A stretch of DNA of 63,143 nt, counting the filler, from Dugesia japonica (lineage: Eukaryota), in the NCBI GenBank assembly GCA_001938525.1. It is 6 parts of 6 records of this genome, joined end to end, with 100 filler letters (N's around TTAATTAATTAA, not from the genome) between each part and the next. Parts side by side here need not be neighbours in the genome. Positions count along the whole stretch, not along the records: positions 28,308 to 41,275 come from MQRL01483210.1; 5 more parts are not named here. One strand, given 5' to 3'. This document shows, one piece after another, positions 10,162 to 49,139 of this stretch. Under the pieces are notes generated by a model that saw nothing but the letters and a program-made list of their open reading frames with translations, had not been told where the DNA came from and made no database searches. How positions within the stretch are numbered: the first letter of the stretch is position 1; each line of letters opens with the position of its first letter. The translations under genes and the position numbers were made by a program.

Positions 10162-10280
10162 AGTTACAATATCCTTATCCTCTATCATTTTTCAATAAAA
10201 AACTAAGTAATCAGAATATTTATAAAATTATAACGTTAATTCATATAATTTAAACAACGTTATTCAAAATTTCTATAACT
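10162..10280 (-). repeat. 3' LTR (119 bp)
   Basis: AGTTA...TAACT termini. Aligns to 14529-14649. Preceded on the minus strand by the polypurine tract GAAGGAGGGGAT (10281-10292). Confidence 0.9.
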
Positions 10281-14510: not shown

Positions 14511-14529
14511 AGTTCTGGCGTGGTTGCCA
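14511..14529 (-). promoter_or_regulatory. Primer-binding site, probably tRNA-Arg type
   Basis: TGGCAACCACGCCAGAACT overlaps the last T of the 5' LTR and resembles the TGGCGACCACG.. complement of tRNA-Arg 3' ends. Confidence 0.7.
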
Positions 14530-14649
14530 ATTATAATATCCTTATTCTCTATTTGAATAACAAACTAAGTAATCAGAATATTTATTAAATATAAAATTAT
14601 AAGATTAATTCATATTATTTAAACAACGTTATTTAGAATTTCCATAACT
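14529..14649 (-). repeat. 5' LTR (121 bp)
   Basis: AGTTATGG...ATAATT, homologous to 10162-10280 with substitutions and small indels. Confidence 0.9.
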
Positions 14650-18970: not shown

Positions 18971-19056
18971 TCATAATAAAATTTCATAATAACATCCTCT
19001 TAAATAACAAAACATCCTCTTTTTACTCTCTATGATTAAATTATTTCTTTATAAAA

Positions 19057-22000
19057 ATGCCAACGAAAATAATTAAATGCGAAAATTGTAATAAAACATT
19101 TAAAAACTTAGCAGGTTTAAAGGGTCATATTAGATCTAAAATCTGTATTAAATCAGCAGATCAATTTAAATGTAATAAATGTAATAAATTATTTAAAACT
19201 GAAAATGATCTAAAATCCCATTTAAATGCAACAAAATGTGGAAATGAAATTGTCCCATTATTCTGTGAAACATGCAATAAAAAATTTTTAAAACAAAATC
19301 ATGCAAGAACACATTATAATTCTCCAATTCATAAAAATATGGTAATTAAAAAAGAAAATGAAAAAAAGGCTCGCGAAGAGGTCATTAAAAAAGATGAAGA
19401 AATTAGAGATATTTTAAAACCATATTCTGATTATGATATTGAATATTTAGGAAACACTAAAGTCTCAATGTATTATGATGTGGAAAAATTATATTCAATT
19501 CCTATTAGAAATATTAATGCATTTAAAAATGACGTGAAAGAAATTATCACTAAATATTTTAAATCTACAAATGAAGTAGTTATTTATTCAATTGTAGTAA
19601 AATGTAGATATATAAAAGAAATTAATAATGAATATTCCCAAGGAGACTTTTATTCTCGTTCTAAAAACAATACAATAACATTTTTAAATGAGATCAATGA
19701 TAATGTACATGAAACATTTCAAGAATTAGAAAAACTTATTGAAGATGAAGATCGCGAAGGATCTGGCTGGTCATTTTTGCATATTTTAAATTATACATTA
19801 GAACTTTTTAAATATCAATCTAAAAATGGAGCAACATTTATTAAATTACCATTTAAAAAACAAGGTGTTATAAATATAGAAAACACAGATGACAAATGTT
19901 TCTTATATTCAATTCTAGCTCACAAATATCCAGTTGATAATCCAACACGTGTTTCTAATTACACTCCACATTTATCAGAATTAAAATATCAAAATGAAAT
20001 ATTACCAATGAAAATAATTGATGTCTCTAAATTTGAAAAATTAAATAATTATCAAATAAATGTTTTCGGTGTCAATGATTCTATTTCACATCACACAAGA
20101 AATCCTAAACCTGAAGAAAATAAATGCAACCTTTTGATATATAAAAATCATTATATTCTATGTCGAGATCTAGGTGTATTCTTCTCAAAAAATGGAAATA
20201 AAAATTATCCGTGCATACGATGTATGAATTCTTATTCCAGTGAAGAAATATTAATTGAACATCAACAAGCTTGTATTAATCACAGACCAAATAACATTGT
20301 ATTTCCATATAATAATTATTATTATTTTAATAAATTTTACATGAAAAATAAAATACCTTTCATATTAATAGGTGATTTCGAAGCATACACAGATATTACA
20401 ACTAAAAAACAAAAAGCTATATCTTTAGGAATTTATCTTCACAGTGAACACCAAAATCTATTAGAATCTAAATATTATGAATTTACTTCTGAAAATATTT
20501 ATCTTGAATTCTTTAAATTTTTAGAAGACACTAATGAAAAACTAGAAGATATAAAAGAAAATAAATTAATAAAAGAATGTCTATATGACTACCCAGCATA
20601 TAATAATGAAAATTGTTATTATTGTAATAAAATAATAAAAGACACTCCAGTTTTAGATCATAATCATTTCACAGGAGAACCTCGTGGATATTCATGTAAC
20701 AAATGTAATTTAAATGATCTCTCAGTTAAAAATCTATTTATACCATTTTATTTTCATAACGCATCCGGCTATGATAATCATTTATTTTTCAGAGAACTTC
20801 TAACAAAATTTCCAGGAAAAGTAAAAAAGATAATTCCACATTCTTCTGATAATTATATTTCATTTTCATATGAAAATATTAGATTCTTAGATTCAGCCAG
20901 ACTATTACCATTTACATCTGTTGAAGTAATGGGTAATCTTCTAACATCTTCAGGAAATTATCCAATATTAACATCCTATAATCTAAGACCTAAAAAAATA
21001 ATATTTCCATACGAATATTTAAAAGGTAACAATCCACAAGAAGTCATAGAATTATTAAAATCCAATAGAATCCCAGAGAAAAATGATTTCTTTAACACTC
21101 TAACACAAAAATCAATATCTGATACTGATTATCAAGAATTTTTAGATGACTTATGCGGAGCACAAACCGAAGGTGGCACAAGAAATTTTGAAAATATGCT
21201 AGAATACATGTTACACTATATGAAATTAGATGTTTTAATTCTAACAGATTTCTTAGAAAATTTTAGAGTTTCATGTTTAAATAATATCCTAAAATTAGAT
21301 CCATGCTATTCATATTCAGCACCAGGATATTCATGGGAAACTGGAATGTTAAATGCAAATATAAAACTTAAATATGCTAAACCCGAAACCTATGACATTT
21401 TCTTAACAGTTGAATCTGGAATACGCGGTGGCTATTCTGGTGTTCTAGGTGAACGTCAAGTATTTTCACATAATAAAAATAAAGAACCATTTACTAAACA
21501 AATGAATAAATCTCAATTTGAAGATCTAATAAAAATGATGAATACCCAAGAATTTCTTCCAGATGAATATCTTAATGATTTAATGGAAGAAACATTTATA
21601 AAATATATTGATGAAAATTCTCTTTACGCATCATGTATGACAAGACCATTACCAACAGGTGAATTCCGTGAGTGTTCTGAGTTAACATATTCTATTTCAA
21701 CAGATAACATTAATTACATCTATGAAGTCGATCTTGAATATCCTAAAGAGATCCACGATAAAACAAAATATTTTCCACTGGCACCTGAAAGATTACTTAT
21801 CACTTCTGAAATGTTATCTAATTACCAATTAAGCTTTCAACGAAAATTAACAAAAGATAATATTAAACTAACATTAAATCAATTAGATAAAAAGAATTAT
21901 ACTGTCCTCGGTTCAACATTAGATCTATATCTCAAACATGGCATGAAACTTACAAAAGTTCACAAAAAGATTGAAATGAAAACATCTACATGGTTTAAAG

Positions 22001-22872
22001 AACATGTTCACAGATTAATCTCTTTAAGAAAAGAATCTAAAAAAATAAAAGATGTATTTGGAGATTACATTTACAAGTTAATGTTAAATGCTTTCTATGG
22101 CAAAACCCTAGAAAATATCAGAAATCGATGTAACATTGAAATTGTTGATAATGAGAAAGATTTCCGAAAGTTTATAAGAAAACCAACATTTAAATCATCT
22201 AAAATCTTTTGTTTAAATGATTCAAATGAAGCCACAGTTGCCGCAGTTAATATGATAAAATCCAAATTAAAATATAACAAATTTCCATATATTGGTTTCA
22301 CAATCCTCGAACATGCAAAACAAGTAATGTATGATTTTGTATACAATCAACTACAACCGTTGATTTTTGAAGATAACTATAAAATTCATTATTCCGACAC
22401 GGACTGCGTCTTTATAGAAATAAAACATAGAGATAACTTAATAAAATTAGAAAGTTTACTTGGCGATAATCTATTTCAAATGAAAGATGAAAAACCTAAT
22501 TGTGAAATATTACAAGGTAATTTTATAAAATCAAAATCATATTCTTATTCTTATACCGAAAGCCAAGGACAAGGCTACGACTCTAGAAATAAAGGTGTCA
22601 AGAAAAATAATAAATTATTAATGTCAGATTTTGATTCAGTATTAAATGATTCCAAGAAAATAATCTATGGAACAAATTATACATTAAAATCAGATTGTCA
22701 TGAAATTGAATTAATTTCTCAAAAGAAAATTGCATTAATGGCCTTTGATGATAAAAGAATCATCGAAGATAACGCAACAAAAACATGGCCACATGGTAAC
22801 CAATTTTATTGTGAAACATGCTTACAATGGCATTTAAGATTAGATAAAATCAACAACCTCTTAAATTGTTAA
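19057..22872 (+). CDS. polB: Protein-primed family B DNA polymerase with N-terminal C2H2-type zinc fingers, OTU-like protease region and HNH/endonuclease VII-like insert
   Basis: 1271-aa intact ORF. ExoI IGDFEAY, ExoII FHNASGYD, ExoIII YMKLDV; polymerase motifs YIDENSLY, KLMLNAFYGK, YSDTDC. EndoVII-like CYYC..DHNHFTGEPRGYSCNKCN. DDKCFLYSI...NHY Cys/His pair. Confidence 0.96.
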   Translation: MPTKIIKCENCNKTFKNLAGLKGHIRSKICIKSADQFKCNKCNKLFKTENDLKSHLNATKCGNEIVPLFCETCNKKFLKQNHARTHYNSPIHKNMVIKKENEKKAREEVIKKDEEIRDILKPYSDYDIEYLGNTKVSMYYDVEKLYSIPIRNINAFKNDVKEIITKYFKSTNEVVIYSIVVKCRYIKEINNEYSQGDFYSRSKNNTITFLNEINDNVHETFQELEKLIEDEDREGSGWSFLHILNYTLELFKYQSKNGATFIKLPFKKQGVINIENTDDKCFLYSILAHKYPVDNPTRVSNYTPHLSELKYQNEILPMKIIDVSKFEKLNNYQINVFGVNDSISHHTRNPKPEENKCNLLIYKNHYILCRDLGVFFSKNGNKNYPCIRCMNSYSSEEILIEHQQACINHRPNNIVFPYNNYYYFNKFYMKNKIPFILIGDFEAYTDITTKKQKAISLGIYLHSEHQNLLESKYYEFTSENIYLEFFKFLEDTNEKLEDIKENKLIKECLYDYPAYNNENCYYCNKIIKDTPVLDHNHFTGEPRGYSCNKCNLNDLSVKNLFIPFYFHNASGYDNHLFFRELLTKFPGKVKKIIPHSSDNYISFSYENIRFLDSARLLPFTSVEVMGNLLTSSGNYPILTSYNLRPKKIIFPYEYLKGNNPQEVIELLKSNRIPEKNDFFNTLTQKSISDTDYQEFLDDLCGAQTEGGTRNFENMLEYMLHYMKLDVLILTDFLENFRVSCLNNILKLDPCYSYSAPGYSWETGMLNANIKLKYAKPETYDIFLTVESGIRGGYSGVLGERQVFSHNKNKEPFTKQMNKSQFEDLIKMMNTQEFLPDEYLNDLMEETFIKYIDENSLYASCMTRPLPTGEFRECSELTYSISTDNINYIYEVDLEYPKEIHDKTKYFPLAPERLLITSEMLSNYQLSFQRKLTKDNIKLTLNQLDKKNYTVLGSTLDLYLKHGMKLTKVHKKIEMKTSTWFKEHVHRLISLRKESKKIKDVFGDYIYKLMLNAFYGKTLENIRNRCNIEIVDNEKDFRKFIRKPTFKSSKIFCLNDSNEATVAAVNMIKSKLKYNKFPYIGFTILEHAKQVMYDFVYNQLQPLIFEDNYKIHYSDTDCVFIEIKHRDNLIKLESLLGDNLFQMKDEKPNCEILQGNFIKSKSYSYSYTESQGQGYDSRNKGVKKNNKLLMSDFDSVLNDSKKIIYGTNYTLKSDCHEIELISQKKIALMAFDDKRIIEDNATKTWPHGNQFYCETCLQWHLRLDKINNLLNC

Positions 22873-22881
22873 TATAGAAAA

Positions 22882-23622
22882 ATGGGTGATAATAATATAA
22901 CAGAAGAAGAATTAGTAAAATTAGTTAATTCTAGAAAATGTAAATCTGTGAAGATCAATGGTAAAAATTATTATATTTCTAAAAAAATTAAAGATGAACT
23001 CAAGAAAGTTCCAAAAGAAGGTGGATTTGCATTTCTAGCTGCTATTCCAGCAATAATTGCAGCATTAGCAACTTCAACTGGAATAGCATCTGGAATTGCT
23101 TCTACAGTTTCAAATTCTAGAGATGCTATCAAAAAACAAAAAGAAACAGAATTAATTGAATTACAAAAACAAAATGAGGCTAAAAAACTAGCAAACTCCA
23201 CAGGACCAGTTACAACCACAGGACAAGTTACAACCACAGGATCAGGAATCAAAAACCACGAGGGCAACAAGAAAAAAGCAAAAAAACATGGTAAAGGACA
23301 GAAAAAACAGAATAAAGCAACAAGCGCGAAAAAACAGAAAAAACATGGTAAAGGTATTTTTTTAAATCCATATCAAGGAACTGCAATACATAAATATTTA
23401 AAAAATATTGATCCTAAATTTAAATCCTTAACTAAAAAGTTTAAATCTGGAACTCAAATAATTAAGAAAGGAAAAGGTATTTATTTAAATCCATATAAAT
23501 CCGGAAAAGGTATTGAAACTGAAACCGAAGATGAAGATGATGATGATGAAACCGAAGATGAAGATGATGAAGATGATGATGAAGATGAAGATGATGAAAC
23601 CGAAACTGAAGATGATGAATAA
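22882..23622 (+). CDS. Putative virion core protein (adenovirus pX/pVII-like), basic with an acidic tail
   Basis: KEGGFAFLAAIPAIIAALA resembles the GG+hydrophobic segment of adenovirus pX and of Polinton core proteins. Repeated GKG/GSG motifs, duplicated GKGI(F/Y)LNPY, K-rich middle, D/E C-terminal tail. Confidence 0.7.
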   Translation: MGDNNITEEELVKLVNSRKCKSVKINGKNYYISKKIKDELKKVPKEGGFAFLAAIPAIIAALATSTGIASGIASTVSNSRDAIKKQKETELIELQKQNEAKKLANSTGPVTTTGQVTTTGSGIKNHEGNKKKAKKHGKGQKKQNKATSAKKQKKHGKGIFLNPYQGTAIHKYLKNIDPKFKSLTKKFKSGTQIIKKGKGIYLNPYKSGKGIETETEDEDDDDETEDEDDEDDDEDEDDETETEDDE

Positions 23623-23673
23623 AACCCATAAAATCCATAAAGGAAGAAAGGGCCAAAATTAAATCTTTATAAA

Positions 23674-24945
23674 ATGGTTGAAAATAGAATTAAAGATTTA
23701 AAAGCTCTAATTGCTGCACAAGAAAAATATAATATTTTTTTCTGTAATAAAGTTCAAGATTATAACACTTTACAATCTAATTTATCCACTTTACAATTAC
23801 CAACTATCTCCGCAATTGAAAAACTTGGAATAAAACAAGAAACAATAGAAACTAGAGATATAACAAAATTCTTTTTAAATGAAAAAATCTTACCATTCAC
23901 ACCAGAATATTCAATTGATAACATTAATGCAACCGGGAAATTAACTCAAACAATTATTCCTAAATTTTCTAGATTAGATATTGCAGCAACTGATAAAATT
24001 AAAAGTTTTATAGAAATAAATTTAAAAGGAAATAATATTTATTTATTCACCGAAGAAGATAATAAAAGTTTCTTATTTAAATCTGAAGTTATACCATACA
24101 CTGATGGAATTTTTAGATTAATCCTAGGAAACCTAGATGGAAAAGAAACACCTGAAGATATCGAGACTTATTTAAAATTTATATCTCCTTTGCCAACTAA
24201 TTGTGATTATGTTATTAAATTAAAAAATAAATTTAGAAAAGTTGAACTCGAAAAACCTAAAAGATCCAAAGAAAAATCCACAGGGGACGGAAAAATATCT
24301 ATCCCACAACAAGAATCAGAACCTGAAACAGAAAAATCAGTAATACAAGAAAACTCAACCAAGGAATTATTAGCAATATTTAATAAAGATAATTTAGTAC
24401 CATATGAATTTAAAAATACAATAACAAAAAAATTAACAGAATCAACAACACCAGAAGTTTTTAAAAAAACTATTAATGGAAAAGAATTCAAGTTCATGAA
24501 ATTTCCTAATAATGTTAATAATATATATTTTTATAAAAGGGATGATTATGGTTATTATCATGATGGTATAAGAAGTCATGCATTAGATAATAATTTAATT
24601 AATATATTTTTAGGAAACACAGAAAATCTAACAAAGGAAGACATAAAAAAAAATATTGTTACATATGCAAATTTGGTAAAACCACCTGTTGATGATGCAT
24701 ATTATAATTCTTTAAAGAAAAAAAGTGGAAGTGGACTCAAAAACCAAAACCATAAAGGAAGACACAAGGCAAAAACGACTAATCCATTAGCATTATTTGA
24801 AAAGTTAACATTGTTAATTTCAGCTGCAAAATCTGGACATAACAATTTACATGCTGAAATTAAATCTTTATGTAAACAATTAAAATCTAAAGGTTTATTA
24901 TCTAACAAGATATATAAAAATTATAAAACTAAATATTTTAGCTAA
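23674..24945 (+). CDS. Conserved Polinton uncharacterised protein
   Basis: 423-aa intact ORF. The C-terminus SGSGL...PLALFEKLTLLISAAKSGHNNLHAEIKSLCKQLKSKGLL matches the P.EL..RL.LL.AS..AGN....EI..I...L...G.I motif common in invertebrate Polintons. Confidence 0.7.
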   Translation: MVENRIKDLKALIAAQEKYNIFFCNKVQDYNTLQSNLSTLQLPTISAIEKLGIKQETIETRDITKFFLNEKILPFTPEYSIDNINATGKLTQTIIPKFSRLDIAATDKIKSFIEINLKGNNIYLFTEEDNKSFLFKSEVIPYTDGIFRLILGNLDGKETPEDIETYLKFISPLPTNCDYVIKLKNKFRKVELEKPKRSKEKSTGDGKISIPQQESEPETEKSVIQENSTKELLAIFNKDNLVPYEFKNTITKKLTESTTPEVFKKTINGKEFKFMKFPNNVNNIYFYKRDDYGYYHDGIRSHALDNNLINIFLGNTENLTKEDIKKNIVTYANLVKPPVDDAYYNSLKKKSGSGLKNQNHKGRHKAKTTNPLALFEKLTLLISAAKSGHNNLHAEIKSLCKQLKSKGLLSNKIYKNYKTKYFS

Positions 24946-24950
24946 ACAAA

Positions 24951-25622
24951 ATGTCTCATCAATTCTTAGTAGTTGGAACAGAACAAGATTTAAAAATTAA
25001 TTTAGATTATCCGATAAAGTTAGATTCAGAATATGAACTTGGCATGTTATATTTTTCATGTTACAATATTATTTTTAATATCAACAATCTAAATAATAAA
25101 TTCATTATCGATGGAAAACCACAAGGGCTAGAACCAGGATCATATGAAGTTAAAGAAATATCAAATCGATTAGAAAAATATCTAGAAATTAAACCTGACA
25201 CTGCAACATCTAAATGTAACATCAAAACTAAAATCACAATAGAATTTGATAACAAATCATTCTTCCATACATTACTAGGATTTAAACCTGGAAAATACGA
25301 TCCTGGAAATTATTATTCTTCTGATAAGATTAACATTACAAATATTAACTCGATAAATATAACTTGTAATATTGTTAAAGGTAACTATGTCACTAACAAA
25401 CAGGACACAACAAATATTAATCTTTTATATTCATTTCCAATAAATACCGTTCCATTTGGATATAAAATAGTTGAACGTCCATCACCAGCNNNNNNNNNNN
25501 NNNNNNNNNNNNNNNNNNNNGACGGTTTTAAATTTAACATCGTAGATGAAAACTTTAACACCATCGACTTTAACCAAGAAACAATTACAATTTTAGCTCA
25601 TTTACGTAAATATCGACTTTAA
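24951..25622 (+). CDS. Minor capsid protein (penton, single jelly roll)
   Basis: PIKLDSEYELGM, FNINNLNNKF, PGSYEVKEI, INITCNIVKGNY, PFGYKIVERP, IVDENFNTIDFNQETITILAHLRK are Polinton minor-capsid signatures. Confidence 0.88.
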   Translation: MSHQFLVVGTEQDLKINLDYPIKLDSEYELGMLYFSCYNIIFNINNLNNKFIIDGKPQGLEPGSYEVKEISNRLEKYLEIKPDTATSKCNIKTKITIEFDNKSFFHTLLGFKPGKYDPGNYYSSDKINITNINSINITCNIVKGNYVTNKQDTTNINLLYSFPINTVPFGYKIVERPSPXXXXXXXXXXXDGFKFNIVDENFNTIDFNQETITILAHLRKYRL

Positions 25623-25708
25623 AATATCTGTTTCTGAAGTGTTTTCAAAAATATCTGTAATAGGTTTAGGTTTAATATTTTTGATTAAAGATGCCAAAAA
25701 GACATTTT

Positions 25709-26256
25709 CTAAATTTTGTTGTCTGTCTTTATGGCCTTTATGGTTTTTATATAATCAAATACTTCTTCAAGTGAAATAATAGGATTTTTTATTCTAAAAT
25801 TAAAATAATTAAATATATCATAACAAATTTTTATTTCATCATTTGTCAAAGGTGTTTTTCTTTTATTGGAAACATATCTATTTAAAACTTTAATATATTT
25901 AGGCTTATTAAATGGATCAATAGGATTATTTCTTTTTTCTTCAATATACATTTTTATTTCGGAAACACCACTTTTTAAACTTACAAAATTATAAATATCT
26001 TCAAGATTTTCTTCAATATCACCAGATTGATAAATAATATTAAATCTTTTTTCATCAACATATTTTTTTAAAACATTAATATTTTTTTTTGAATTTATAA
26101 ATTTAAAAATATTTATAAAATTTTTAATATCAATATAATCAATATAACTAAGATCTTTTTTTTTTCTTCAATATACATTTTTATATCCCAAATAGTGTTT
26201 TTATAATTTACAAATTTATAAATATCTTCAAGAGTATAAATGTTTTCAGGTGTCAT
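25709..26256 (-). CDS. Antisense accessory ORF (~180 aa) with an internal repeat and one frameshift in an A10 run
   Basis: ATG at 26256. The frame is restored by one extra A at 26156-26165. LEDIY(K/N)FV...IKMYIEEK occurs twice. Confidence 0.55.
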
Positions 26257-26305
26257 TTTAAGATATTTTTTTTAATCATAGAGATTCAAATCTAATATTT
26301 AAGAA

Positions 26306-26824
26306 ATGAGCGAAGCCCATAAAAGAAGAACCATAAAGGAAGAAAGAAAATGGAATTTATTAGATTTTTTAAAAACATTTGGAATCAACACAACAACAAA
26401 TTTTGATTTATATTCGATCAGTAAATTTTTAAATCTTCCATTAGAGATTTACATGAAAAATGAAAAATTTACACTGACCTCCGGTATGAATTATATTTTT
26501 AATTATCAAAATTCAAATCAAAATGGAACACATTGGGTTGCTTACAGTAAAGGTTATTATTTTGATTCTTTTGGTTTAAAACCTTTAAAAGAAATCTCAG
26601 GTGTAAAAGTTTATAATAAAATTCAAGTGCAACATTTCGGAACTGAAATATGTGGCATTTTATGTATTTATTTTTTATATAAAATTCGACATACCAAATT
26701 TGACATGATAATATCTGAAATGAAAGATTTATATGAAGAGCTACGCGAAGAAACCATAAAGGAAGAAACCATAAAGGAGAAAAATTTAGATATAGAAAAT
26801 AGCAACAAAGGAGAAAATGAATAA
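26306..26824 (+). CDS. Adenain-like cysteine maturation protease
   Basis: GTHWVAY, YFDSFG and QVQHFGTEICGILC supply the His-Asp-Gln-Cys catalytic set of adenovirus/Polinton proteases. Confidence 0.92.
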   Translation: MSEAHKRRTIKEERKWNLLDFLKTFGINTTTNFDLYSISKFLNLPLEIYMKNEKFTLTSGMNYIFNYQNSNQNGTHWVAYSKGYYFDSFGLKPLKEISGVKVYNKIQVQHFGTEICGILCIYFLYKIRHTKFDMIISEMKDLYEELREETIKEETIKEKNLDIENSNKGENE

Positions 26825-28127
26825 GTTTGGTGCTACTGCTGATTCTGGCAATTCAACAGAAATATTAAAAAATGTTAATGCTAAAATAAAAAACTCAGAA
26901 GCTCAGGCTGAAAATAAATATGTAAATGAAACTGGTGATACAATAACATCTTTAAAAATAAAAGAAGATCCCAAGGATCTTTCTGATGCAGTTAATTTAA
27001 AATATATAAAGTCACTTGAAGAAAAATTAGAAAGACATGAAATTATTTTCAATAGATTATTAAAAGTTGATAGTTTTACAGCTAACAAATTATATTTAGA
27101 ATCTAAAATCTCTGAATTAAAAAATTTGAATATCGATATTACAGTTCTGAATTCTAAAATTCAAAAATTAACAAAGAACTGTAATCAGGATACATTTGAC
27201 AATATCAATTCTGACATTAAAAGATTAAAACTTGAACTGTTTCCATATAAAAAAAGTGATTTATTAATTAAATTTAAAATAATAGCTAATGATGCAAATT
27301 TATCTGAAAAATTTAAAAAAGAAATTGATATATTAAAAACAAGAATTAATATTTTACATGATGATATCGACAAGAAAACATTTGACATTTATATAATTTC
27401 TATTAATACAATAAAATCTAATATAGAAAAATATAAACCTATAATTTTAAAATTAACTTCTGAAATTAAAAAAGTAAATGAAGAAGGGCGAGATAAAATA
27501 TATTCTAATAAAATTGATGTTGCATTTAAAAAATATAAAGAAACACTTTCTAATGAAACATTTTCAGATTTAAAAGAATTAATTGATAATCACATACCAT
27601 ATATTGGTGTGAATGGGAGTTATAGTATATTTTTAATTTTCAAATTAATTTTTATAAGATTTAGTATTATGGATAAATATGTTAATGATTTTAGTTTTAA
27701 AAAAAGTTTTTTGGATGATTATCTTGTAAAACCTTTTGAAATTCATTTACATACAAAAGTAAATGAAAAAATTAGTATAAGTATTACTGGTCATTGTAAA
27801 ATTGAAAAATTTACATATGTCATTAGAATTAATAATATTGCAGTGCCATTTTTATATGTAAAACCTGAATCTGGAAATATTAATATTTATCGTGAAAGTA
27901 CTGAAATTAATAAAGATCTAAATATAAAATATATTGTAATAATTTTACCTGAAAAAATTCATATAAAAGTAATAAGTGTTAATTTATATAAATTAGAAAA
28001 ATTTGAAAAATTAAAAGAAGAATATAAAAATAAAAAGTTTCATAAGTTACATGTTGACAGAATTAATGTTTATTTTAAAACTTATAATTTAAAAGCTTTA
28101 ATAGAAATGTTTGATAATGACAAATAA
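26817..28127 (+). CDS. Putative fibre/attachment-like protein
   Basis: 436-aa intact ORF overlapping the protease stop. The N-terminal KYVNETGDTIT...DPKDLSDAVNLKYI resembles viral fibre anchor repeats (GDTMTG, DAATKKYV) and is followed by a coiled-coil-like region. Confidence 0.5.
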   Translation: MNKFGATADSGNSTEILKNVNAKIKNSEAQAENKYVNETGDTITSLKIKEDPKDLSDAVNLKYIKSLEEKLERHEIIFNRLLKVDSFTANKLYLESKISELKNLNIDITVLNSKIQKLTKNCNQDTFDNINSDIKRLKLELFPYKKSDLLIKFKIIANDANLSEKFKKEIDILKTRINILHDDIDKKTFDIYIISINTIKSNIEKYKPIILKLTSEIKKVNEEGRDKIYSNKIDVAFKKYKETLSNETFSDLKELIDNHIPYIGVNGSYSIFLIFKLIFIRFSIMDKYVNDFSFKKSFLDDYLVKPFEIHLHTKVNEKISISITGHCKIEKFTYVIRINNIAVPFLYVKPESGNINIYRESTEINKDLNIKYIVIILPEKIHIKVISVNLYKLEKFEKLKEEYKNKKFHKLHVDRINVYFKTYNLKALIEMFDNDK

Positions 28128-28307
28128 TATGTTTATTTAGAAAATAACAATTCAATATTAACACTGCTGGCTGCGAATCAAACACTGAATGATAAATTTC
28201 ACATTAGNNNNNNNNNNNNNNNNNNNNNNNNNNNNNNNNNNNNNNNNNNNNTTAATTAATTAANNNNNNNNNNNNNNNNNNNNNNNNNNNNNNNNNNNNN
28301 NNNNNNN

Positions 28308-29614: not shown

Positions 29615-31118
29615 TTGTAATCATGAGATAATAAATAAATCAAAGTTAATTTCAATAATTAGCATTCATTTTATTATTAAACACAAACCAATCACATTTG
29701 ACTTGTTAAAATTATCAGACAATTAAAAACGCTCTCGATTTTTATTGGTTAATGTTTTATTTCTCTGAGATGTTATCGCATGTAAATTGTTGTTTTTATG
29801 TTTGCTTGTTAGTTTGTGTTTCGAAACTACTCTAATTCCTCAAAATAAATAATCTCACATTTTTTTGTTAATTTTTATAATTCAGTATTTTTATGTTTAT
29901 ATTTGTTTGCTGCACCCATTATCAATTCGATTTGATTTTAGTTTTGTTACATTATATTTGAGTATTTTTCACTGTTAGTTTAATTATCACATTAATCAAT
30001 GAAATTTAACTATGTAAATAAATGTGTAAATTTGTTTTGAATTTTCATTGATAATGTAACAGATTTTTTCCAAAAAATTAGTTATAATATTTACAAAGTT
30101 TAAATTAAAATTAAAAAAATATTTCAGTAAAGAATGAATTTATTAAACTTTATTATATTNNNNNNNNNNNNNNNNNNNNNTTATTAATATTTGCAAATCA
30201 AAGGAGACTTTTCAAAGCTGAATTTTTCCATACACTAAAGAGAATAATCTTTATTTAAAATGACAATCAATTTACTGTCATCATTAACCAGTTACCAGTG
30301 TCCACTTCAGAACTTTTAGCGTTTTTTGTATTACACCAAATCGTTAATTTTGAAAAGAAAATTCATAGTAATTATATACAAAACTTTACACCATATTTAA
30401 ATTTTAATTTAAAACTAAATTTAGGATCTTTTTATTAGAAAATGTTTCCATTAATAAAATTAAACAACAATGAACTCTTTGATCCATCTCTCTGTTACTG
30501 TTATACAGCTATTTTTGTTGTTTAAGGCAAAACTTTTCTATTGCTTAGAGCACTGAATTGTCGACAACTTTGGATACGTTTGAAGTGTAAAAAATAATTT
30601 CTTTAATAATAATAATAATAATAATAATAAATCTTCGGAATATTGGACAAATCTCTTCACCGTCGAACTAAATGAAAAATATCCTACAAAGCAAAACAAA
30701 TTAATCAACAAATAATTAAATTATACAGAAATACTACCTATTTTTCCAGAAGGTTTACAGCAATTTGTGGCAAATTGTTGGAATTTTCGTCCAAAAACAG
30801 CCAATGGAATATCGATCTGAAAAGAAAATTAGTATAAAAAGGACAAAAAACATACGAAATTTACCCTTAACAATCTTGTCATTTGAGATAACAATCCAAT
30901 CATTGAAATAAATTGTTATCCAAGTAGAAGAAACATCGATGGAGCACAGAAAACGAGGCAGACCACGTGTCGAAACCAGTTATGATCAAAACGGAACACA
31001 AATTAAACCGACAGAATATCAACTCAAAACAAAATAATTAGAAGCCAAAACATCTCACCTGAACAGATTATCACAATAATTGGGTCAACAATCAAAATAC
31101 AAACATGTCAACGGATCA

Positions 31119-31510
31119 TTATCGACTAATAAAATTGGAAAAGATCTCACCAAAATACTTTGTCCAGAAAAACGATCTTGAACCGGCAAATTAGAAACAC
31201 CTTCTGAAGTAGAAAATTTATCACAAGTAATTAAACCGATTTTAATAAAAATACCATCGACGAAATAAAGATGTGCTATTAAACCACGAGTAGAGAATGA
31301 AAGTGTTGTATGCGAGTTATGGCGGGTTGGAATTACAAAAGGCAGAGCAGTAACCATAGCGTTTCTACTTCACCAGGCTATATACACATTGTAAAAAGAT
31401 AAACCAGCCAAATTCCCAGATGGAGGACAGTTCCGCATGACAGGAATTATATAGAGAACAATTGAACCATGGATTCATCAACAGGGTGGATTGTCAGCAT
31501 TCATTAAATC
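31119..31510 (+). pseudogene. Bcl-2-family-like domain (BH1 and BH2 motifs)
   Basis: One frame with in-frame stops. ESVVCELWRVGITKGRAVTIAFLL (31299-31370) versus Bcl-xL BH1 EQVVNELFRDGVNWGRIVAFF. RTIEPWIHQQGGLSAFIK (31455-31508) versus BH2 HLEPWIQENGGWDTFV. Confidence 0.7.
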
Positions 31511-31634
31511 AATGTTACCACAGAATTGTAATCAAACAGACCTTTCAGCGAAAGTAAAAAGAGTGTTAAAAAATTTGTTAAAAAGTATTACAGGTTCAAT
31601 GTCATAAAAACGAGGTAGATCAAATACAGGATCT

Positions 31635-33600
31635 ATGTTGCCGATTTTAATCATGCTAATGTTGTTAATATTACCAGGGACACAATGAATGGTAGCGTTC
31701 GATGGCGATGAGATGGACTTTGGAGAGAAAGTTTACTCCTTAGTAGATACAGAAGAGTGTTCTGATGCGAACCCAGAACAGTTTGAGTCTATAAAAACTA
31801 TTCGGTCTATCAAATATATCAGGAATGCGATTATTATCAAGCTATGGTAGAAGAGTGTATAGTAACAGTAGCCACCTTCGTATTTAATTGTGGATATAAA
31901 AGTTGGTAATCTGTAATTGATCCAGGATTAAAAAAGAAACCAGTATTATTAACTAGACAAAAATGCAAGCAAGGATTTGTGTTTCTAAAGATAGACTTAA
32001 AAACAGGCGTCACGGTGAAAACTAAAAGGGATTTGTAACTAGTCAAAAGTTAATCACAGTTGAATCAATATCACCAGTAGACAACGAGTATTATATACGA
32101 TACGGATTCATATACGATAGATGGTATAGTAGCAAAAAATGTGGTAGTAATAGAAAGTTACACTGTGGAATTAAAAGAATTTAAAGCACTATTCGATGTA
32201 GATGGCTTAACAATGAAAACTCAACCAGCGTGTAGAGCGTCAGACAAATCATGTAGTTCAGGAATATCGACACTTGTATACGATGTATAGCTAAAAAAAT
32301 GTAAAATGATCTTTTTAAAGAAGTTAATATTCAACGAATATCAAGGAAAGCGTTATCAGGAACCAACAGAAAATTTAGAATCGTTTACTGAGAGTAAAAA
32401 AGCAGGTAAAGCCGCCGAGGAAGGACCACAAGGATTAGAAATGAAATGGATGGACACACTAATTTTATTGATTTTAGTTAGCAAAAAAGATGGAATCAGA
32501 TTAATAAAAAATAAAGCAATATAAAAATGGGAAGGCATCGTATATAAAACAAATTATAAAGGCCTACATATCTTGGAACGAAAGTTAGCAGGAGCACAGC
32601 ATATCATTGGGAACGAAGATATAAAACTACATCTGTATATTAATAATAAAATGGATTTCCTGTATCACAGAGACAAGGCTCTGTAGAAAAGATGTATCAC
32701 GATTTGGTACATAATGACTGTATATTAAATCAAGAATTGTTAAAAACAAAACTATCAATAGCAATAAAAAATCCTGATAATGTAGCACCACTACTTCCTT
32801 TCGGTAAAGGACAATTTGCCAGAAAAGTGGGAGAAGTCATGTACATTTATCCGTGCAAAGAAATGTCAGCCATAATGACTCCAAGACCGAAAGACAGAGA
32901 AACATGTTATAACGAACTAGAAAATTGGTATATAAACAAAACAAGATACGTGCAACCTGTCACAAGAATAATATCACCGATGGACTATATTCCAAATCAA
33001 ATAAACTAATTTAATATTTTAGGACCAATGTATGTAATGCCAAATGAAAAATGAATCAGATTTCAGTATAGATCCACATGGGATCCGAAACCTCAAAAAT
33101 TTCTCTTTGATCAAATTGAACGGCGGGGAAAGATTTGAATCTCTAAACGTAGCAGAAAATGGAATTTATAGCTCGGACGATTTAGCCAGAGCTCGTGAGC
33201 ATATGCTCTTCCCAGTAAAAAGAATGCAAATATTATCAAAAATAGTACAGATAGCTAACGGAACGTTATGCAATAGAAGACCTAATTACGATCTATTATT
33301 ATCACCAGATCACTTTCAACAAGCAACTCACAACGTTATGAAAAAGTTGTGGGATAAATTCATAATATTTGGCTAAGTAATGGTAGGGTTATTAAGAATT
33401 ATATTAATTATATATATCGTGAAAGTAGTCATCACACAAATGTTTGCTTGTTTCGATATATACGGGAGAGAAAAACGAATAAATTAGAAATTAATGACAG
33501 GAATATTTCCGTTCTGAGCAAAGACAGTTGTACTAAACAGCCACACAAAAGATATCTATCAAATAAAGAAATTCCTCAAGAAAATGAGTAAAAGACATGG
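31635..33600 (+). pseudogene. env: Chuvirus-like (class III, gB-related) envelope glycoprotein
   Basis: Signal peptide MLPILIMLMLLILPG, then AFD..YSLVDTEEC, FNCGYKSW, MYHDLVHNDCILNQELLKTKLSIAIKNPD, GEVMYIYPC, CYNEL..PVTRII, GIYSSDDLARAREHMLFP and a TM helix at ~33378-33450. Collinear with chuviral glycoprotein motifs. Confidence 0.82.
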
Positions 33601-34310
33601 AACAGATCAGGAAATTGGAGCACAAATCAGACAACTATGCATCGAATATCATACTTAAAATCACTACAAAATCAGCTACAACTAAAATGGAATGATATTA
33701 CCAGCAGTGAAAGCAATGAATCGGAAGGAAATATTTAATCAACAAGTTATTACAGAGAAAAAGCTCCAGATTACGATGAAGTTGTACGAAAAGACAGATA
33801 ACAAGAGAAAAGAAAAGCCAAAAGGAAATAAAAATTAACAAAGTTGAAAAATCATTCAAAGCCATATATCAAAGAAATGCACAAACATACACAAAAAGCA
33901 TTCAAAGCCATATATCAAAGAAATGTACAAACATAAAATCTAGGAAATCCGCAAGTAACCAATGCATGGGTAATATGTAATGACGGATTATATTATCCAA
34001 TGGAAGATCCAACACAACTGAGACGAATACCTAGATTATATGATTTTTTAAATCTACCACTATACCCAAATTGGACTATGCCAAGAATGCATTATCACCA
34101 GGTCAAACAATATAGCAACCAATAAATTTACCAATGCCACAGAAAATGGAACCAATAGTACAGCGAAACATTATGAGCTCAAGAAATTCCATGATACTAC
34201 AAGACAATACACAATCACCAGTACGAAACCGACAGCCACTAACAATGCAGAGCAGTCAAGAGTTAGAAGCAAAAACAGTCTGTACAGGAACAACAGCAGA
34301 AGGAAGTGCT

Positions 34311-34630
34311 TTACTAATGAAAGTAAAATTTAATGACATAGAACTAACATAGCCGATCAACACAGCAGCAAGTATATCGATGATACATCCATATGCACTC
34401 CCACTACAGACACACGGACCAATGCAAGGAACGAAATTTAGGATCAGTAGTCTGGACGGATGAGTTATCTAACCGCTCGGACAGATAAACTGCTCAATCC
34501 ACAGAGAAAACGCACCAAAAATTCGACACACATTAACTGTAATGGGTAGATTAGCCTACAGTTGTATCTTGGGATTGGATTTACTGCTGCAAGTGCTAGA
34601 TAACGGTATAATTAACTTAAATCAATTAGG
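34311..34630 (+). pseudogene. Retropepsin-like aspartic protease, copy 1
   Basis: LLMKVKFNDIELT*PINTAASISMI...ISSLDG...PLGQI...SCILGLDLL. Catalytic DTG reads NTA here. Confidence 0.7.
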
Positions 34631-34691
34631 AATATTCAAGGAATCGAATGAAAATAATAAACCACCAAAAGTTACTCAACAAGTTACACCT

Positions 34692-34853
34692 TGTGCAATA
34701 TGCGGAGTAAAAAGACATAACGCATTACAATGTCAATTGTCGAAATCTAAATGCCATTCCTGCGGAAGAATCGGTCACATAGAAAAAATATGCTTAGCAA
34801 AATCATCATGATGTTACAAGTGTGGAATAAGAGGTCATAAGGAAAAAGAATGT
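34692..34853 (+). pseudogene. Three CCHC zinc knuckles (nucleocapsid)
   Basis: CAICGVKRHNALQC, CHSCGRIGHIEKIC and CYKCGIRGHKEKEC, each C-x2-C-x4-H-x4-C. Confidence 0.92.
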
Positions 34854-35208
34854 TTCAGAAATGCAGTTCTAAGTCAACTTTGGCTTGGAGAATAAGCTAG
34901 TAGAGATAACTTCATGATAAACGAATCAACAGAAACTATAACAAAAGGATTCGAGGGAGAAAAATACCAACTGCAACTTACAACAGTGGTAAAATTCATG
35001 ATGGCATAAAAAAATGCCACCACCAATGTCAAATTTAGCCGGAAAATGGGAGAATTTCAAACTCAACAGAATACACGGAAATCCATTGAATGATTACGAG
35101 GATATCGACCAAATTCATTTAGAAGAATACGAAAATTTAGATAAAATACAAGCAGGCCGAGGCATCAAAGAGAAAGTCTTTTATGCATTCCGTCCAGGCG
35201 GACCACGA

Positions 35209-38200
35209 TTTGGCATCAATATTAAATTAAATGGACAAAAAGTTAATTCACTTCTAGATACAAGATCAACTTTATCCGTAATAAATAATAGCTTATAACA
35301 GCTTATCCAAAGAACAACGAAAAGGGATTCTTATCAACGATCAAACGGCTGTAGAGCAGTAGACGGAGTATCAGTCAATAAAATCGGAAAGTTACCCTAT
35401 GAAGTATTTTACAGGAGAAAAACAGTATTACACAATATGACAGTAATGGATGTAACTGAAACATATTTTGGGAACAGATATACTACCGCAACTATTAACG
35501 AACGGAATAATCAAATTATCAACGTTACAAGTCAAAGGTAAACGGAAAGGCCGATACTCAAAAAGCTATGAGGTGTTTAATTCCGATAGAATGATCATAC
35601 CGAGAAAAAGCCAAGTGTGCTATCTCGCAGACACAAAGACTCCACAGAGAGGAACAATGTTATTTGAATCATATGATGGGTTCTCACAGAAATATAAATT
35701 ACCAGCAGCAGGAGAACTTGTAACAGTAAAAGATGGCGGGAAAGTACCAGTCAATGTAGTAAATTTCTCAAGTAAAGATATTAGAATCCACCCAAATTCG
35801 AGACTAGAAACATTGACACCCATATTAAACTTCGTCCAGCAAGAAGAAAAGAAAACTACAGAAAGCGACTTGAAATCAAAGAGCACGGTAGAATTCCCTG
35901 CCATGGAAGATGATTTTAAAAGTTATATACCAGACAGTAACCCAACAGAAGTAGACAGATTATTCCAAGTCAATTCTGAAATCATATCAGCGGAACAAAA
36001 GAAACAGCTACTAAATCTTTTGGAAGAGTATAGAGATATATTTGCATGGACGGACGATGAATTAGGAGAATGTGGTGTCACAATGCATACGATTCCGATA
36101 ATCGATGAAGACCCAGTAAAATTAAAACCATATAGAATTGCACAATCTCAGAAAAAAATTTTTGATGCAGAAATTAAGAAAATGCTAGAAGCAAAAGTAA
36201 TTGAACCTAGCTGCTCACCTTGGCTATTCCCAGTAGTGTTGGTTAAAAAGAAAGATGGAGCAACAGGTTTCTGTATCGATTACAGACAGTTGAATGCAAA
36301 AACAAGAAAGGAAACATATCCTTTCCCTGAAATAAACGAATCATTACAGTTGTTGTACAGAGCAATAATATTCACAACACTCAATTTAAAAAGAGGATAT
36401 TGGCAACTAAAAATCAGTATTTACAGCAGGACAAGATTTATATCAATTTATTCGAATTCCATTCGGTTTAACTAACGCACCAGCATCATTTCAGAGGTAC
36501 ATGAATTTTGTCACACATGACATAGCACATTGTATGGTAAATACAAAGGATCTATTAATATTCTCAAGAGGATTTTCGAACAGTCTTTGTTAGACTTCAA
36601 CACTGGATTTTATAAGTTAAACCTACTAAGTGCGATTGGGCTAAAAACAAAGTCACGTTTTTAATACGTCAAATATCAAATAAGAGTAGATAACCAGACC
36701 TGAGGAATACAGAAAAGATAAAAGAATTTCCAGTGCCTAAATGTGTCAGAGAAATACTGGAATTTCTTGGATTAAGCAGATATTACAAGAAATTTATTAA
36801 AGGTTAAGCAACAATTTCAAAACCCATGCAAGATCTTGTAAAACAAGATACCACTTTTATATGGACAGAAGAACAACAAAAATCATTCGAATCTCTCATA
36901 GATCAATTACTAAAAGCACCAATTTTGGTTCATCCAAATTTCGAAAAACCATTCTTACTTGCAATTGATGCAAGCGGATACGCAGCAGGAACTGTATTAG
37001 GCCAATATGATGATCAAGGTCGAGAACACGTTGTAGCTTATTTTAGCAAAACATTTCAAGGAGCTTAGAAAAATTACAGTACAACAGAATAAGAAGCTCT
37101 CGCAATAGTAAAAGCAATTAAACATTTTAGACATCTATTCCTTGGACACGAAGTCATTATATTATCAGATCATCAACCACTAACTATGATTGGCCAGAAA
37201 CCATTACGAACTCTCAGACTTGCTAAATGGGCAATTAGTTTACAAGAATACATGCCGAAAATAAAATTCAGGATCGGCAAAGCCAATTCTAATGCAGATT
37301 GTTTATCGCGAGCAATATTTCCTGAACTTGTAAACAAACAAACGGAAGATATCTGTTTCTTATTATCAGAAGACATTGACTTTGAACAATTCAAGGAGAA
37401 ACAGAAGGAAGATTCAGAAGCCAAAATTATCCAGAAATATCTAATGGCAAAGCAAAATGATGCATTAAAATGTAACCCAGAAATGAGAAAACACTTACTG
37501 AAAAATGGATGTCGTTATACAATGAAAAAGGGATGGTTAATGACACAGAATGGAGAAAAAAGGCAACATTTATACCAAAATCGCACATAGAACGAATTTT
37601 ACAACAATGCCATAATGAAGTCCTTGGAGTACATATGTCAGCAAGAAAAACAGAAGCAAAATTAAGACACAAATACTATTGGCCAAGAATCGCTCAAGAT
37701 GTAAAAGATTGAATAGCACATTGTCAGATATGCGCTTCCAGAAGAGGAACAGGAGCTTCAGAAAAGGCACCTTTAAAACCAAAGCCAATACAAACTAAAC
37801 CGATGGAGATAATGGAGATGGACGTATGGCAGAGAATGTAATTTACCAATCGATTTGAAACACCAGTTTCCGATATTGTAATATATGGAACAAGAAAAGT
37901 ATGTCATTCGAATGAAATAGAAAATCCAAGAGATCTGGAATAAAGCAAGACTAAAATTCAAATATTATCAAGAAAGTGTCAAAGATTATCATGCCAAGAA
38001 AGCAAAACCCCATACGTTCAAGAAATGAGATAGAGTATTAATTAATACTCCGGAAATAGAAATCGGAACGATAGCAAAGTTAAAAAGGTTAGGCAAAGGA
38101 ATTTACAAAGTATTAGTGGTCACAGAAACCAATGTAAAAGTCAGATTAATTGGTAAAATACTCCAGAAACAACTATAGATTCATGTAAATCGATGAAATA
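35209..38200 (+). pseudogene. pol: pol: protease copy 2, dUTPase-like linker, RT, RNase H, internally deleted integrase
   Basis: LLDTRSTLSVI...ILGTDIL; PYRIAQ..SPWLFPVVLVKKKDGATGFCIDYRQLN; LAIDASGYAAGTVLGQ; HNEVLGVH..YYWPRI..CQIC. Confidence 0.92.
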
Positions 38201-39381
38201 AGGCAGCGTTACAAATAAAAAAGCATCATGGAAATACATAAAATAGAAGTACAAGAACTGGAAGGAACTGAACTAACTCAAGAGGCATCGAGTGACTCTG
38301 AAGATGGACAAAAATTGCCATATAAAGGATTAAAATGTCGACGAAAACCACTACCAATTACTATGAAATACGATAAAAAAATGTTTAAGAACTGTCTAGA
38401 AGGCACGACCGAAATCATACAATGATCTCTTAGTGTAAAAGGTGAGCTTGGAACACCCATTGCCACCAAAGAGAACCTCTAAGAAAACAAAGAACAAGAA
38501 AATCAAAGATCAAGAGACTCAACATGTGGCATCAAATGTAAAAGAAACGAAGATAATACGAACCGAAATTCGTAAATATAACGAAAAACATGCATTTGAA
38601 AAGCAAGACAAAAAGTGGGATCAACATAAAAAAGACTTAGAACTATTAGCTAATTATCCCGAAATCACACAAGAAAACGGTGCTTGTACAATATGTGATA
38701 ATAAATTTCTCGAAAATGTCCGAATATGACACGAATGTTGGATAACACTTTGTCATCACTGTATAGAAGAACCAATGAAACATTTAAAACGAGAATCTAG
38801 TCGTGCCTCAAAGTATTGGGCATCAACATATAGATGTTTTCTTACTAGAGTAGCAGGTGGATCAGCTTTGCCTCCGCAAACACGAGAGTTACTTAAAAAT
38901 TTCAGAAACAACAGATAACCAATTTCCAATGAATGGAAAAGAAAAAAATTGCCGCGGACGGTAAGAGTTTCAAAGTAGACCTAGGAGATTTAGTGGCAGT
39001 AATTAGCAGGAAAATTGTCAAATATGGAAAACTAAAATCCAGTTGAGCACAACAAGTACAAAAGATAGCGTATGCAAAGTGGGCAGAAAAGNAAGCACAA
39101 AGGATAGCGTATGCAAAGTTGGCAGAAAAGTAAAACAAGCAAAAGACAAGGAAAAACAAAAAAAGCAAATTCAAGATAAGAAAAATGAAATTCTGGACAC
39201 CCCACAATATTTAAACAAGGATTAAGTGGTAATAAAACAGCCAAGAAATAGAGAAACAACGGAAAATGTCTGCTCAGAAGGCATTTACTAATTAGATGGT
39301 CGGCCACAAAAGGAAAGACAAGAAGAGTCAAAACACAGATCAACAATAGTCAGTTTATTTGGCTCATACGCATCGGGAACA

Positions 39382-40830
39382 ATGGTAATCTTAATAATGT
39401 CTATACTAATCTTGCCAATAGCACAAGCAAAAGAACGCAAATTTACACCATGTAATTGCAAACAAACTATAAACGACAGCATCATAGACGATCTATGGAT
39501 AAGATTGTTGCTAGCCGGTATTGTCATATTTTATTGCGGACAACGATTATTAACTCTATTCATACCAATATTATCAGGCAAATGTACCAGTCAAAGTTGT
39601 GAGATAACAGAACATGTACATACAGAGCATTGTCTACTCATAGAGTCAGATGAAAGGATTATGGAGAATATTAGTTGAGATGCATTGTCAAGGGAAGAAA
39701 CAGCGACCAGAGAATTGTCCCTTAATAAAACCACAGAATTAAAATCAGCACTATCAACTGGAAAGTTCCAGTTCCAACAAAGAAAGACTAAATATAAAAT
39801 CACAAACTTCAGAGTCAATACAAATCGTAATAACCCAATAAGACGAATATAATTGGGATAACCACCAATTGTTTACTAGAGTGGCAAATACAACGAGTCC
39901 ACTGATGAGTTTGAAACCAGTATAATGACACTGAAGCGGAATATCCTAATAATGTATACTACCACAACCAAGCAGACATTTAGAATTTGAACATCCAATG
40001 GATGTTTAACGGCGGAAACAGTGATGGTCAAACAACAAATAAAATTTAATTGCAACAAAATATATGTGATGGTCATGAGTTTTTCAGGGCAAAAAATAAG
40101 CGTCGAACGATAACAAATGCAAGATACCAAACCACATATTATGGAACTAAAAAAGCAATCCATAACAATGAAAACGAAAATAAACACATTTATAAGACAT
40201 TCAAGCAAAATTGCGAAAATACAATGGACCAGTCTAGATGCACAAAATATGATAGTCGAACAAATCAACATTCTTAAACAATGGTTAAATCCAACGAACA
40301 GATTGGTAGTGGAACGCTCAGGATTTGAGAGAGGTAGTTTTAATAGAGAATTCGTATTATATAACAATATATTATTCGTACAGCGTGTTATGATGAAGAA
40401 CAGACGAATACTAACCCAACAAATAAAGTATAAAAAGATCTCATTCATAGACAAGATACCAACAACGAAAAAACTAATTACATAAAAAATAACAACAGCA
40501 AAAGAAGCAGAAACAAAACAACCGGAACCACAAATAGAAGGAAGTAATGCGGTAACGCCAGAACAAAAAGCGTTTCTAGAACAAATAATAAGAAAGATAC
40601 ATAAACCAAACGCTACTACAGTTGCATTAATTTACAATTTATTGACATTGCTAAGCTTATTTTTATTAATCCCTATTAAAAATAAGCTCAGCAATGCCAA
40701 TAGATACACCAAAGGCAAAGAACTGGAAGACGAATGTTTTTTAACAGCAACAGCATCAATAGTTTTCTGCATAATCTGTATAATAGCAACAATACTAGTA
40801 GTCAAGCGACTCAGAAGGCAGTACAAAGGA
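39382..40830 (+). pseudogene. Second predicted membrane glycoprotein (env-like) downstream of integrase
   Basis: Signal peptide MVILIMSILILPIAQA, N-terminal CxC (FTPCNCKQ), scattered Cys, and C-terminal TM IVFCIICIIATILVV followed by KRLRR. Fragmented by stops and frameshifts. Confidence 0.5.
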
Positions 40831-47799: not shown

Positions 47800-47995
47800 T
47801 AGGTAAAGAAGACACGACATTTCCAAATTCAGCTAATGCATTTGATTTCTATGTGTGTAGTATTTTTCTGTTATTAGCTAGTACATCCTGAGCTGTTTTC
47901 ATACCAAAAGAACCAATAAGTCTAAGAATTGGAAAGGCAAATCTCCCTATTGTTCGTAACCACCCAGATCCATACTGTTTTTGAAGAGGTTCATT
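47800..47995 (-). pseudogene. Polinton PZ-like small protein
   Basis: QYGSGWLRTIGRFAFPILRLIGSFGMKTAQDVL resembles the Q.G.G...F.R.A.PL motif of the ORF that precedes MCP in Polintons. Confidence 0.6.
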
Positions 47996-49114: not shown

Positions 49115-49139
49115 CTGAATTTTGTCTTGTTATTTTATT

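Follow-up and report, generated by a model that had tools for sequence, protein, structure and literature searches.

Here we report a Bcl-2-like domain, real but degenerate, within a retroelement of Dugesia japonica. The copy that bears it is a dead member of a high-copy family of giant Ty3/gypsy elements, likely of the planarian Burro type, and we consider it probable that the in-frame Bcl-2-like domain of its intact relatives served to delay apoptosis. As judged by sequence comparison, the stretch is almost certainly homologous to Bcl-2. The element very probably belongs to the Burro-type giant Ty3/gypsy elements, an assignment which follows from architecture, copy level and base composition and not from sequence identity. 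An anti-apoptotic role of the domain in intact relatives is favoured with more reserve. The window is the whole stretch of DNA that was analysed, 63,143 nucleotides in length including spacers, joined from six parts of assembly GCA_001938525.1.

Background

Burro/GYPSM1 elements are giant gypsy-like LTR retrotransposons of dugesiid planarians and occur in thousands of copies (PMC6431247, section 7, citing Jurka 2007 and Grohme et al. 2018). According to that section, they exceed 30 kb, carry LTRs, an N-terminal Gag, MATH and ubiquitin-like regions and a dUTPase-like motif between PR and RT, and have a BCL2-like motif in Burro-2, -3 and -4; env, which matches mononegavirus fusion glycoproteins, lies between BCL2 and PR in one ORF of 4,873 aa. 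A BCL2-like motif ahead of an in-frame env is therefore already published for Burro elements. Meddling of Burro with host apoptosis is put forward in the same section as a suggestion, untested there. Burro1 is reported second-hand to protect stem cells from apoptosis via a RING-plus-BIR (IAP) region (PMC13465017). Gag-Env-Pol Ty3/gypsy errantiviruses with an HSV/gB-type env are described from Nematoda, Bryozoa and Platyhelminthes (PMC13524379); like the present element they place env ahead of pol, and the main text of that paper contains neither "bcl" nor "apopto". The available parts of PMC8532177, PMC11410931 and PMC13238120 added nothing on the Bcl-2-like domain. Our literature search found no test of the Burro Bcl-2-like domain; Grohme 2018, Lee 2026 or supplements may contain one.

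Intact relatives

Relatives were sought with an RNase H query among proteins of 1,629-5,186 aa, which gave 11 matches from 523 candidates, three of them with the env family PF24664. P0004 (4,057 aa, ENA) encodes, without a stop, N-terminal CCHC knuckles and a ubiquitin-like domain followed by the Bcl-2-like domain, signal segment, env, ankyrin repeats (a feature of P0004), protease, reverse transcriptase (RT), RNase H and integrase. L001, a JGI contig, holds a 5'-open frame of 3,426 aa in which the domain, linker, signal segment and env occupy the same region. In both, one open frame runs from the Bcl-2-like domain through env and pol, and includes several protease-like domains, RT, RNase H, integrase and a C-terminal membrane segment. 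The window shares with the two the Bcl-2-like domain, linker, signal segment and PF24664 env, but its RNase H is only about 44-51% identical to theirs. Two further intact elements, P0003 and P0006, have no Bcl-2-like domain (scores 23 and 21, with 239/300 and 300/300 shuffles as high). In the RNase H tree, P0003, P0006, P0004 and L001 form one well-supported clade (99/97), and the window was not placed within it.

Homolog searches with the Bcl-2-like domain plus env start (proteins of 481-2000 aa, 809 candidates) and with the env piece (264-2000 aa, 38 candidates) found none; the relatives exceed those length limits. With the window domain as query, none of 10 viral and none of 190 metagenome candidates was confirmed; scanning viral contigs for env gave 0/7 and 0/33, and an env-alignment scan confirmed 1 of 191 metagenome candidates. 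After the polyprotein, L001 has a separate 496-aa ORF (10617-12107) with an RNase T-like exonuclease domain (PF00929, E 1.4e-5), possibly a further accessory gene.

Structure of the element

The features of the element are compiled in Table 1.

Table 1. Positions of the Bcl-2-like stretch and of the surrounding element in the window
Feature	Position	Strand	Basis and remarks
Decayed Ty3/gypsy element body, likely Burro-type	30916-40980	+	Depth jump, domain order; 3' limit approximate
Basic RKRGRP motif	30939-30968	+	Translation; similar motif precedes domain or signal segment in intact relatives
Bcl-2-like stretch under study	31119-31510	+	Within the MQRL01483210.1 part, Dugesia japonica
NKIGKDL, earlier called BH3-like	31128-31148	+	Rejected as BH3
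Four in-frame stop codons within the Bcl-2-like stretch	31179, 31266, 31392, 31452 (span 31179-31454)	+	Translation; 131 codons
BH1-like motif ESVVCELWRVGITKGRAVTIAFLL and following helix	31299-31370	+	Alignment to Bcl-2; ITKGR replaces VNWGR
BH2-like motif TIEPWIHQQGGLSAFI	31458-31505	+	Gly-Gly kept; following Trp absent in this copy
Hydrophobic segment, predicted internal env signal peptide	31635-31685	+	Kyte-Doolittle 3.11 over 13 aa; in frame with Bcl-2-like domain
Env, Monjiviricetes fusion-glycoprotein family	31689-33595	+	PF24664 E 2.8e-10, 8.4e-18 and 3.4e-18 on three pieces
First protease-like domain, then three CCHC-type knuckles	34323-34868	+	tblastn to P0004 protease E 7e-6; zf-CCHC E 3.8e-6
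Second protease-like domain and conserved pre-RT domain	35200-35860	+	Aspartyl protease families E ~0.01; 25% identity to L001
Reverse transcriptase and RNase H, frameshifted	36240-37251	+	tblastn to P0004; PF17919 E 2e-36, PF17917 E 5.6e-34
Integrase zinc finger and C-terminus	37539-38229	+	PF17921 E 1.3e-16; ~143 catalytic-core residues missing
Possible RING-like finger, 3' of integrase	38685-38783	+	zf-C3HC4_2 E 0.83 only; weak
Second membrane-protein-like frame, stop-broken	39382-40980	+	Translation; signal-like start, hydrophobic end

The element begins with the Bcl-2-like domain and signal peptide, which are followed by the mononegavirus-type env and then by protease, RT, RNase H and integrase in the order usual for Ty3/gypsy elements; the whole arrangement is the one described for Burro/GYPSM1. 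Window and P0004 env are 30-39% identical, and from the basic motif to mature env there are 270 aa in P0004, 127 aa in P0003 and 130 aa in P0006. The pre-RT domain occupies the position of the published Burro dUTPase-like motif, and domain-family searches of it gave no dUTPase match. No LTR pair was found for the element, and in the window copy, a fragment of about 10 kb, no Gag, ubiquitin-like or MATH parts and no BIR or ankyrin repeats were seen. Two or three aspartyl-protease-like domains per polyprotein occur in P0003, P0006, L001 and the window (34323-35472), one directly after env and, in some elements, one after integrase. The second membrane-protein-like frame matched no family in Pfam or PHROGs; P0004, P0005, P0006 and L001 likewise end in a module of signal-like segment, ectodomain and transmembrane segment.

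Compared with Burro1-4 by their published description, the window resembles Burro/GYPSM1 in having a BCL2-like motif directly before a mononegavirus-type env that is in frame with the upstream region, then PR, RT, RH and IN, in a very high copy level and in an AT-rich animal genome. It differs in its length of about 10 kb, in lacking Gag, MATH, ubiquitin-like and LTR parts, in being broken throughout, and in its CCHC knuckles between two protease-like domains. The occurrence of Gag-Env-Pol elements in nematodes and bryozoans also (PMC13524379) was counted against the Burro label.

Other features of the window

Positions 19036-28127 hold a Polinton/Maverick-like element with largely open frames, among them one for a protein-primed DNA polymerase B of 1,278 aa that includes zinc fingers and a stretch resembling endonuclease VII; five further ORFs of this element had no significant Pfam family. 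Another decayed Ty3/gypsy element (RT with YLDD, RNase H, integrase), unrelated to the first, lies at 10200-14600 on the minus strand; a direct repeat of 60 nt, present at 10221 and 14590, may be what is left of an LTR. Two minus-strand ORFs of 124 and 291 aa (47852-49129) have no Pfam match and may be fragments of Polinton structural genes. An intron-split host SepSecS gene occupies 58153-63076 on the minus strand (PF05889, E 5e-32 and 6e-21). Blocks of N-run, TTAATTAATTAA and N-run (e.g. 9865-9964, 28208-28307 and 41276-41375) are identical spacers and not biology; the Burro-type element ends just before the last of these.

Evidence for Bcl-2 homology

The preliminary description of this DNA had placed a BH1-like and a BH2-like motif in one frame at Bcl-2-like spacing, and translation bears this out. 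Both motifs, NKIGKDL, the downstream hydrophobic segment and the start of env share a single frame, which runs from the Bcl-2-like domain into env up to about 31810, and 57 residues separate the BH1 Glu from the BH2 Gly-Gly in the window as in human Bcl-2 (counted in the alignment row). The corresponding spacing across the window, P0004 and L001 is 57, 56 and 55 residues. In the alignment of these three elements, the invariant columns concentrate in BH1 (Glu, Gly-Ile-Thr, shared by 3/3) and BH2 (Gly-Gly); the Trp that follows Gly-Gly in Bcl-2, P0004 and L001 is absent from the window copy. The counterpart of NWGR reads TKGR in the window, TRGK in P0004 and TFNT in L001, so that Gly is kept in two of three and Arg in one, and an intact NWGR was found in none of the three.

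The weak BH3 that had been proposed for NKIGKDL could not be upheld. Its Gly lies 56 residues upstream of the BH1 valines, about two dozen too many given a BH3-to-BH1 distance of about 32 residues in Bcl-2, and the motif is unconserved in P0004 and L001 and falls outside the Pfam match. At the place expected for a BH3 L-x-x-x-G-D in register, no conserved Gly-Asp was found among the window, P0004 and L001.

The translation was read with X at stops and searched against 24,736 Pfam families. Bcl-2 (PF00452) was the sole family matched by four domain-centred cuts, with E 0.044-0.086 and scores of 13.8-14.8 bits that are under half of the gathering cut-off of 31.4 bits; of the 100 profile positions, the match covered only 35-99. 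No family among the 24,736 was matched by a longer read of the window (263 aa). Bcl-2 was likewise the only Pfam match of the P0004 piece (E 0.0076, 17.2 bits), the L001 piece had no Bcl-2 match in Pfam, and none of the three reached the gathering cut-off as a single sequence. When the window domain alone was searched against the PDB, 85 matches were obtained up to E 10, the best 60 of which were all Bcl-2/Bcl-xL (E 0.18-0.48). Taken without the relatives, these Pfam and PDB scores are below significance and are suggestive of Bcl-2.

Among 177,635 PDB sequences, a profile of the window and one intact relative reached E 2.4e-4, and a profile of the window, P0004 and L001 reached E 9.3e-5. For each profile, the best 60 matches listed were all members of the Bcl-2 family, and the best of them were the pro-survival proteins Bcl-2 and Bcl-xL. 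The window core aligned to P0004 (residues 1108-1174) with a local score of 57 against 24.6 +/- 4.1 for shuffles (0/2000 as high), the identity in the domain region being 24%, and core plus env start gave a BLASTP E of 1e-8. The P0004 core aligned to L001 with a score of 95 (0/500 shuffles as high). Direct comparison of the window core with L001 scored 29, with 131/500 shuffles as high; this is at chance level, and the link between the window and L001 therefore passes through P0004. Identities among the elements compared span 13-24% in this region.

Structure prediction, another of the checks proposed earlier, leaned towards Bcl-2 in the case of P0004 and was uninformative for the window. The single-sequence model of the window piece had a pLDDT of 39.5, at which fold matches are meaningless, and no Bcl-2 was among those listed. 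The model of the P0004 piece is also of low confidence (pLDDT 48.9); with Foldseek, every listed row within its top 50 ranks was Bcl-2/Bcl-xL (E 0.04-0.18). A wide fold search of 48,161 chains put an unrelated protein first and A179L of ASFV second (Z 6.0, rmsd 4.3, 115 aligned); of 50 rows, the 12 with alignments over 100 residues were all of the Bcl-2 family (Z 4.9-6.0). These model-based matches agree with the sequence result and fall short of proving the fold.

A helical spacer that mimics BH1 and BH2 by chance would be in keeping with single-sequence scores under every cut-off and with the poor models (pLDDT 39.5 and 48.9). We hold such a coincidence to be very improbable, as two elements only 24% identical each match Bcl-2 alone in Pfam, the profiles reach E <1e-3, and the published annotation in section 7 of PMC6431247 places the same motif at the same site.

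Copy level and decay

Depth was taken as summed contig depth in three contig runs of one organism, in which two flank pieces match at about 99% and which is therefore likely of the same species as the window. The bin that begins at 30916 marks a rise in family contig depth from about 500 to 62,000-234,000; across the three runs the depth is 8-31 in the flank, about 400-600 at 30608-30915, and 28,800-547,000 from 30916 on. The element thus lies about three to four orders of magnitude over the flank in 3/3 runs, as a summed depth and not a copy count. Depth over the Bcl-2-like domain (191,000-306,000 in run X1) is comparable to that over env (192,000-547,000), and the domain therefore belongs to the high-copy family.

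Insertion of a processed host Bcl-2 copy beside env, at this one locus, would account for the lack of introns and for the missing Gag part of the element. It is contradicted by the repeat-level depth of the domain, equal to that of env, and by P0004 and L001, which have the domain at the same in-frame position; the GC content of the domain (36%) also resembles that of the element (34%) as against 28% for the window. We reject a one-off host retrocopy as exceedingly improbable. That the domain is borne by the retroelement, as first described, is supported by the same depth and by the single open frame that joins it to env in P0004 and L001.

The window copy itself is dead, a pseudogene, as follows from its stops, its env and pol frameshifts and its deleted integrase core, and we reject a function of this copy. 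The preliminary description left out the stops in the 31119-31510 frame. Stops number 4 in 131 codons of the Bcl-2-like stretch, 11 in 585 of the env blocks and 16 in 1,004 of the protease and pol blocks, counts that may include a few false stops at block ends near frameshifts; two more in-frame stops stand at 31605, before the hydrophobic segment, and at 31686, at its end. Env has three frame changes besides its stops and pol has several, and the deletion in the integrase core is marked by P0004 residues 3286 and 3430, which align to one place in the window, about 37825. At the stops at 31035, 31077 and 31179, which are among 40 of 676 differing places, at least 99% of the family depth reads otherwise; among the differing places listed, the stop at 31179 and the two upstream are private to the window copy.

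In a quarter of one raw RNA run, 239 reads fell on the stretch, none at >=99% identity and three at 95-99%. Being less than 99% alike, the reads derive from relatives; their orientation is mixed and gives no strand.

Predicted topology and possible membrane anchoring

The intact element would make one polyprotein, of which the Gag-to-Bcl-2 portion, judging from the order of hydrophobic segments, would remain cytosolic. The internal signal peptide would then direct env into the ER, and the env transmembrane helix would bring the chain back to the cytosol for protease and pol, with signal peptidase and the element's own proteases presumably processing the product. By analogy with other members of its family, BH3 helices of BAK/BAX-like host proteins would dock in the BH1-BH2 groove of the domain, and apoptosis would thereby be delayed.

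It had also been suggested that the env signal peptide serves, after signal-peptidase cleavage, as the C-terminal anchor of a free vBcl-2. This fits the predicted topology and is compatible with our preferred reading, a polyprotein-borne domain of a Burro-type element. In P0004 and L001 alike, the stretch from BH2 to the signal segment showed neither a stop nor a second hydrophobic segment, and an upstream piece cut off behind an internal signal would stay held in the membrane by its C-terminus. Flavivirus capsid and HCV core are upstream pieces left membrane-tethered in this manner. The segment is, however, equally hydrophobic in relatives without the domain (Kyte-Doolittle 2.70 in P0003 and 3.02 in P0006 at the same place, 2.75 in P0004, 3.11 in the window), and its retention in P0003 and P0006 means that entry of env into the ER accounts for it. 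Moreover, the segment lies 50, 62 and 59 residues after BH2 in the three domain-bearing elements, with an acidic linker in P0004 (18/52 residues), the upstream piece would comprise about 1,250 residues with Gag unless cut by protease, and the tether would sit in the ER, a mitochondrial site being only putative. After cleavage the segment might nonetheless hold the upstream piece at the ER, and we judge its service as the anchor of a free vBcl-2 unlikely. Slightly more doubtful still is a fuller version, in which Burro-type elements make a working vBcl-2 whose tail anchor is the env signal peptide, an apoptosis blocker is deposited on the producer cell's ER membrane whenever env is synthesised, and the module, present in P0004 and L001 and absent in P0003 and P0006, is gained or lost between sister lineages.

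Probable function of the domain in intact relatives

The domain is like pro-survival Bcl-2/Bcl-xL and the vBcl-2 proteins of large DNA viruses (for instance ASFV A179L) in its BH1-BH2 motifs and their spacing, and unlike them in lying within a retroelement polyprotein, in its degenerate NWGR, and in having no conserved BH3 or BH4 and no evident tail anchor besides the env signal segment. Some Bcl-2-fold proteins of poxviruses act as scaffolds or inhibitors of immune signalling, and the present domain might likewise have a Bcl-2 fold that does not block BAK/BAX, as a scaffold, an immune-signalling inhibitor or a fading passenger. The BH1 Gly-Arg required by the Bcl-2 groove is complete in the window copy only, being lost in intact L001 and with Arg replaced by Lys in P0004; a BH3 Gly-Asp is conserved in none, and intact P0003 and P0006 do without the domain, all of which would suit such a reading. 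So would the published anti-apoptotic activity of Burro1, assigned to its IAP region and not to Bcl-2 in the second-hand account (PMC13465017). Against it, elements only 13-24% identical in this region retain the cores of BH1 and BH2 at a conserved spacing, and the closest sequence matches are pro-survival Bcl-2 and Bcl-xL. We regard a non-blocking fold as rather unlikely, and retain a delay of apoptosis as the probable role in intact relatives.

Conclusions

The locus by itself adds little, as the existence of the domain is already published. In the literature cited here, the Burro BCL2-like motif is an annotation only, the anti-apoptotic activity that was tested for Burro1 being assigned to the IAP region (PMC13465017, second-hand). 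Should the Bcl-2-like domain work too, cell death would be blocked by these elements in two places, and a strategy familiar mainly from large DNA viruses would be shared by a retroelement. Intact relatives that carry the domain and others that lack it offer a natural comparison set.
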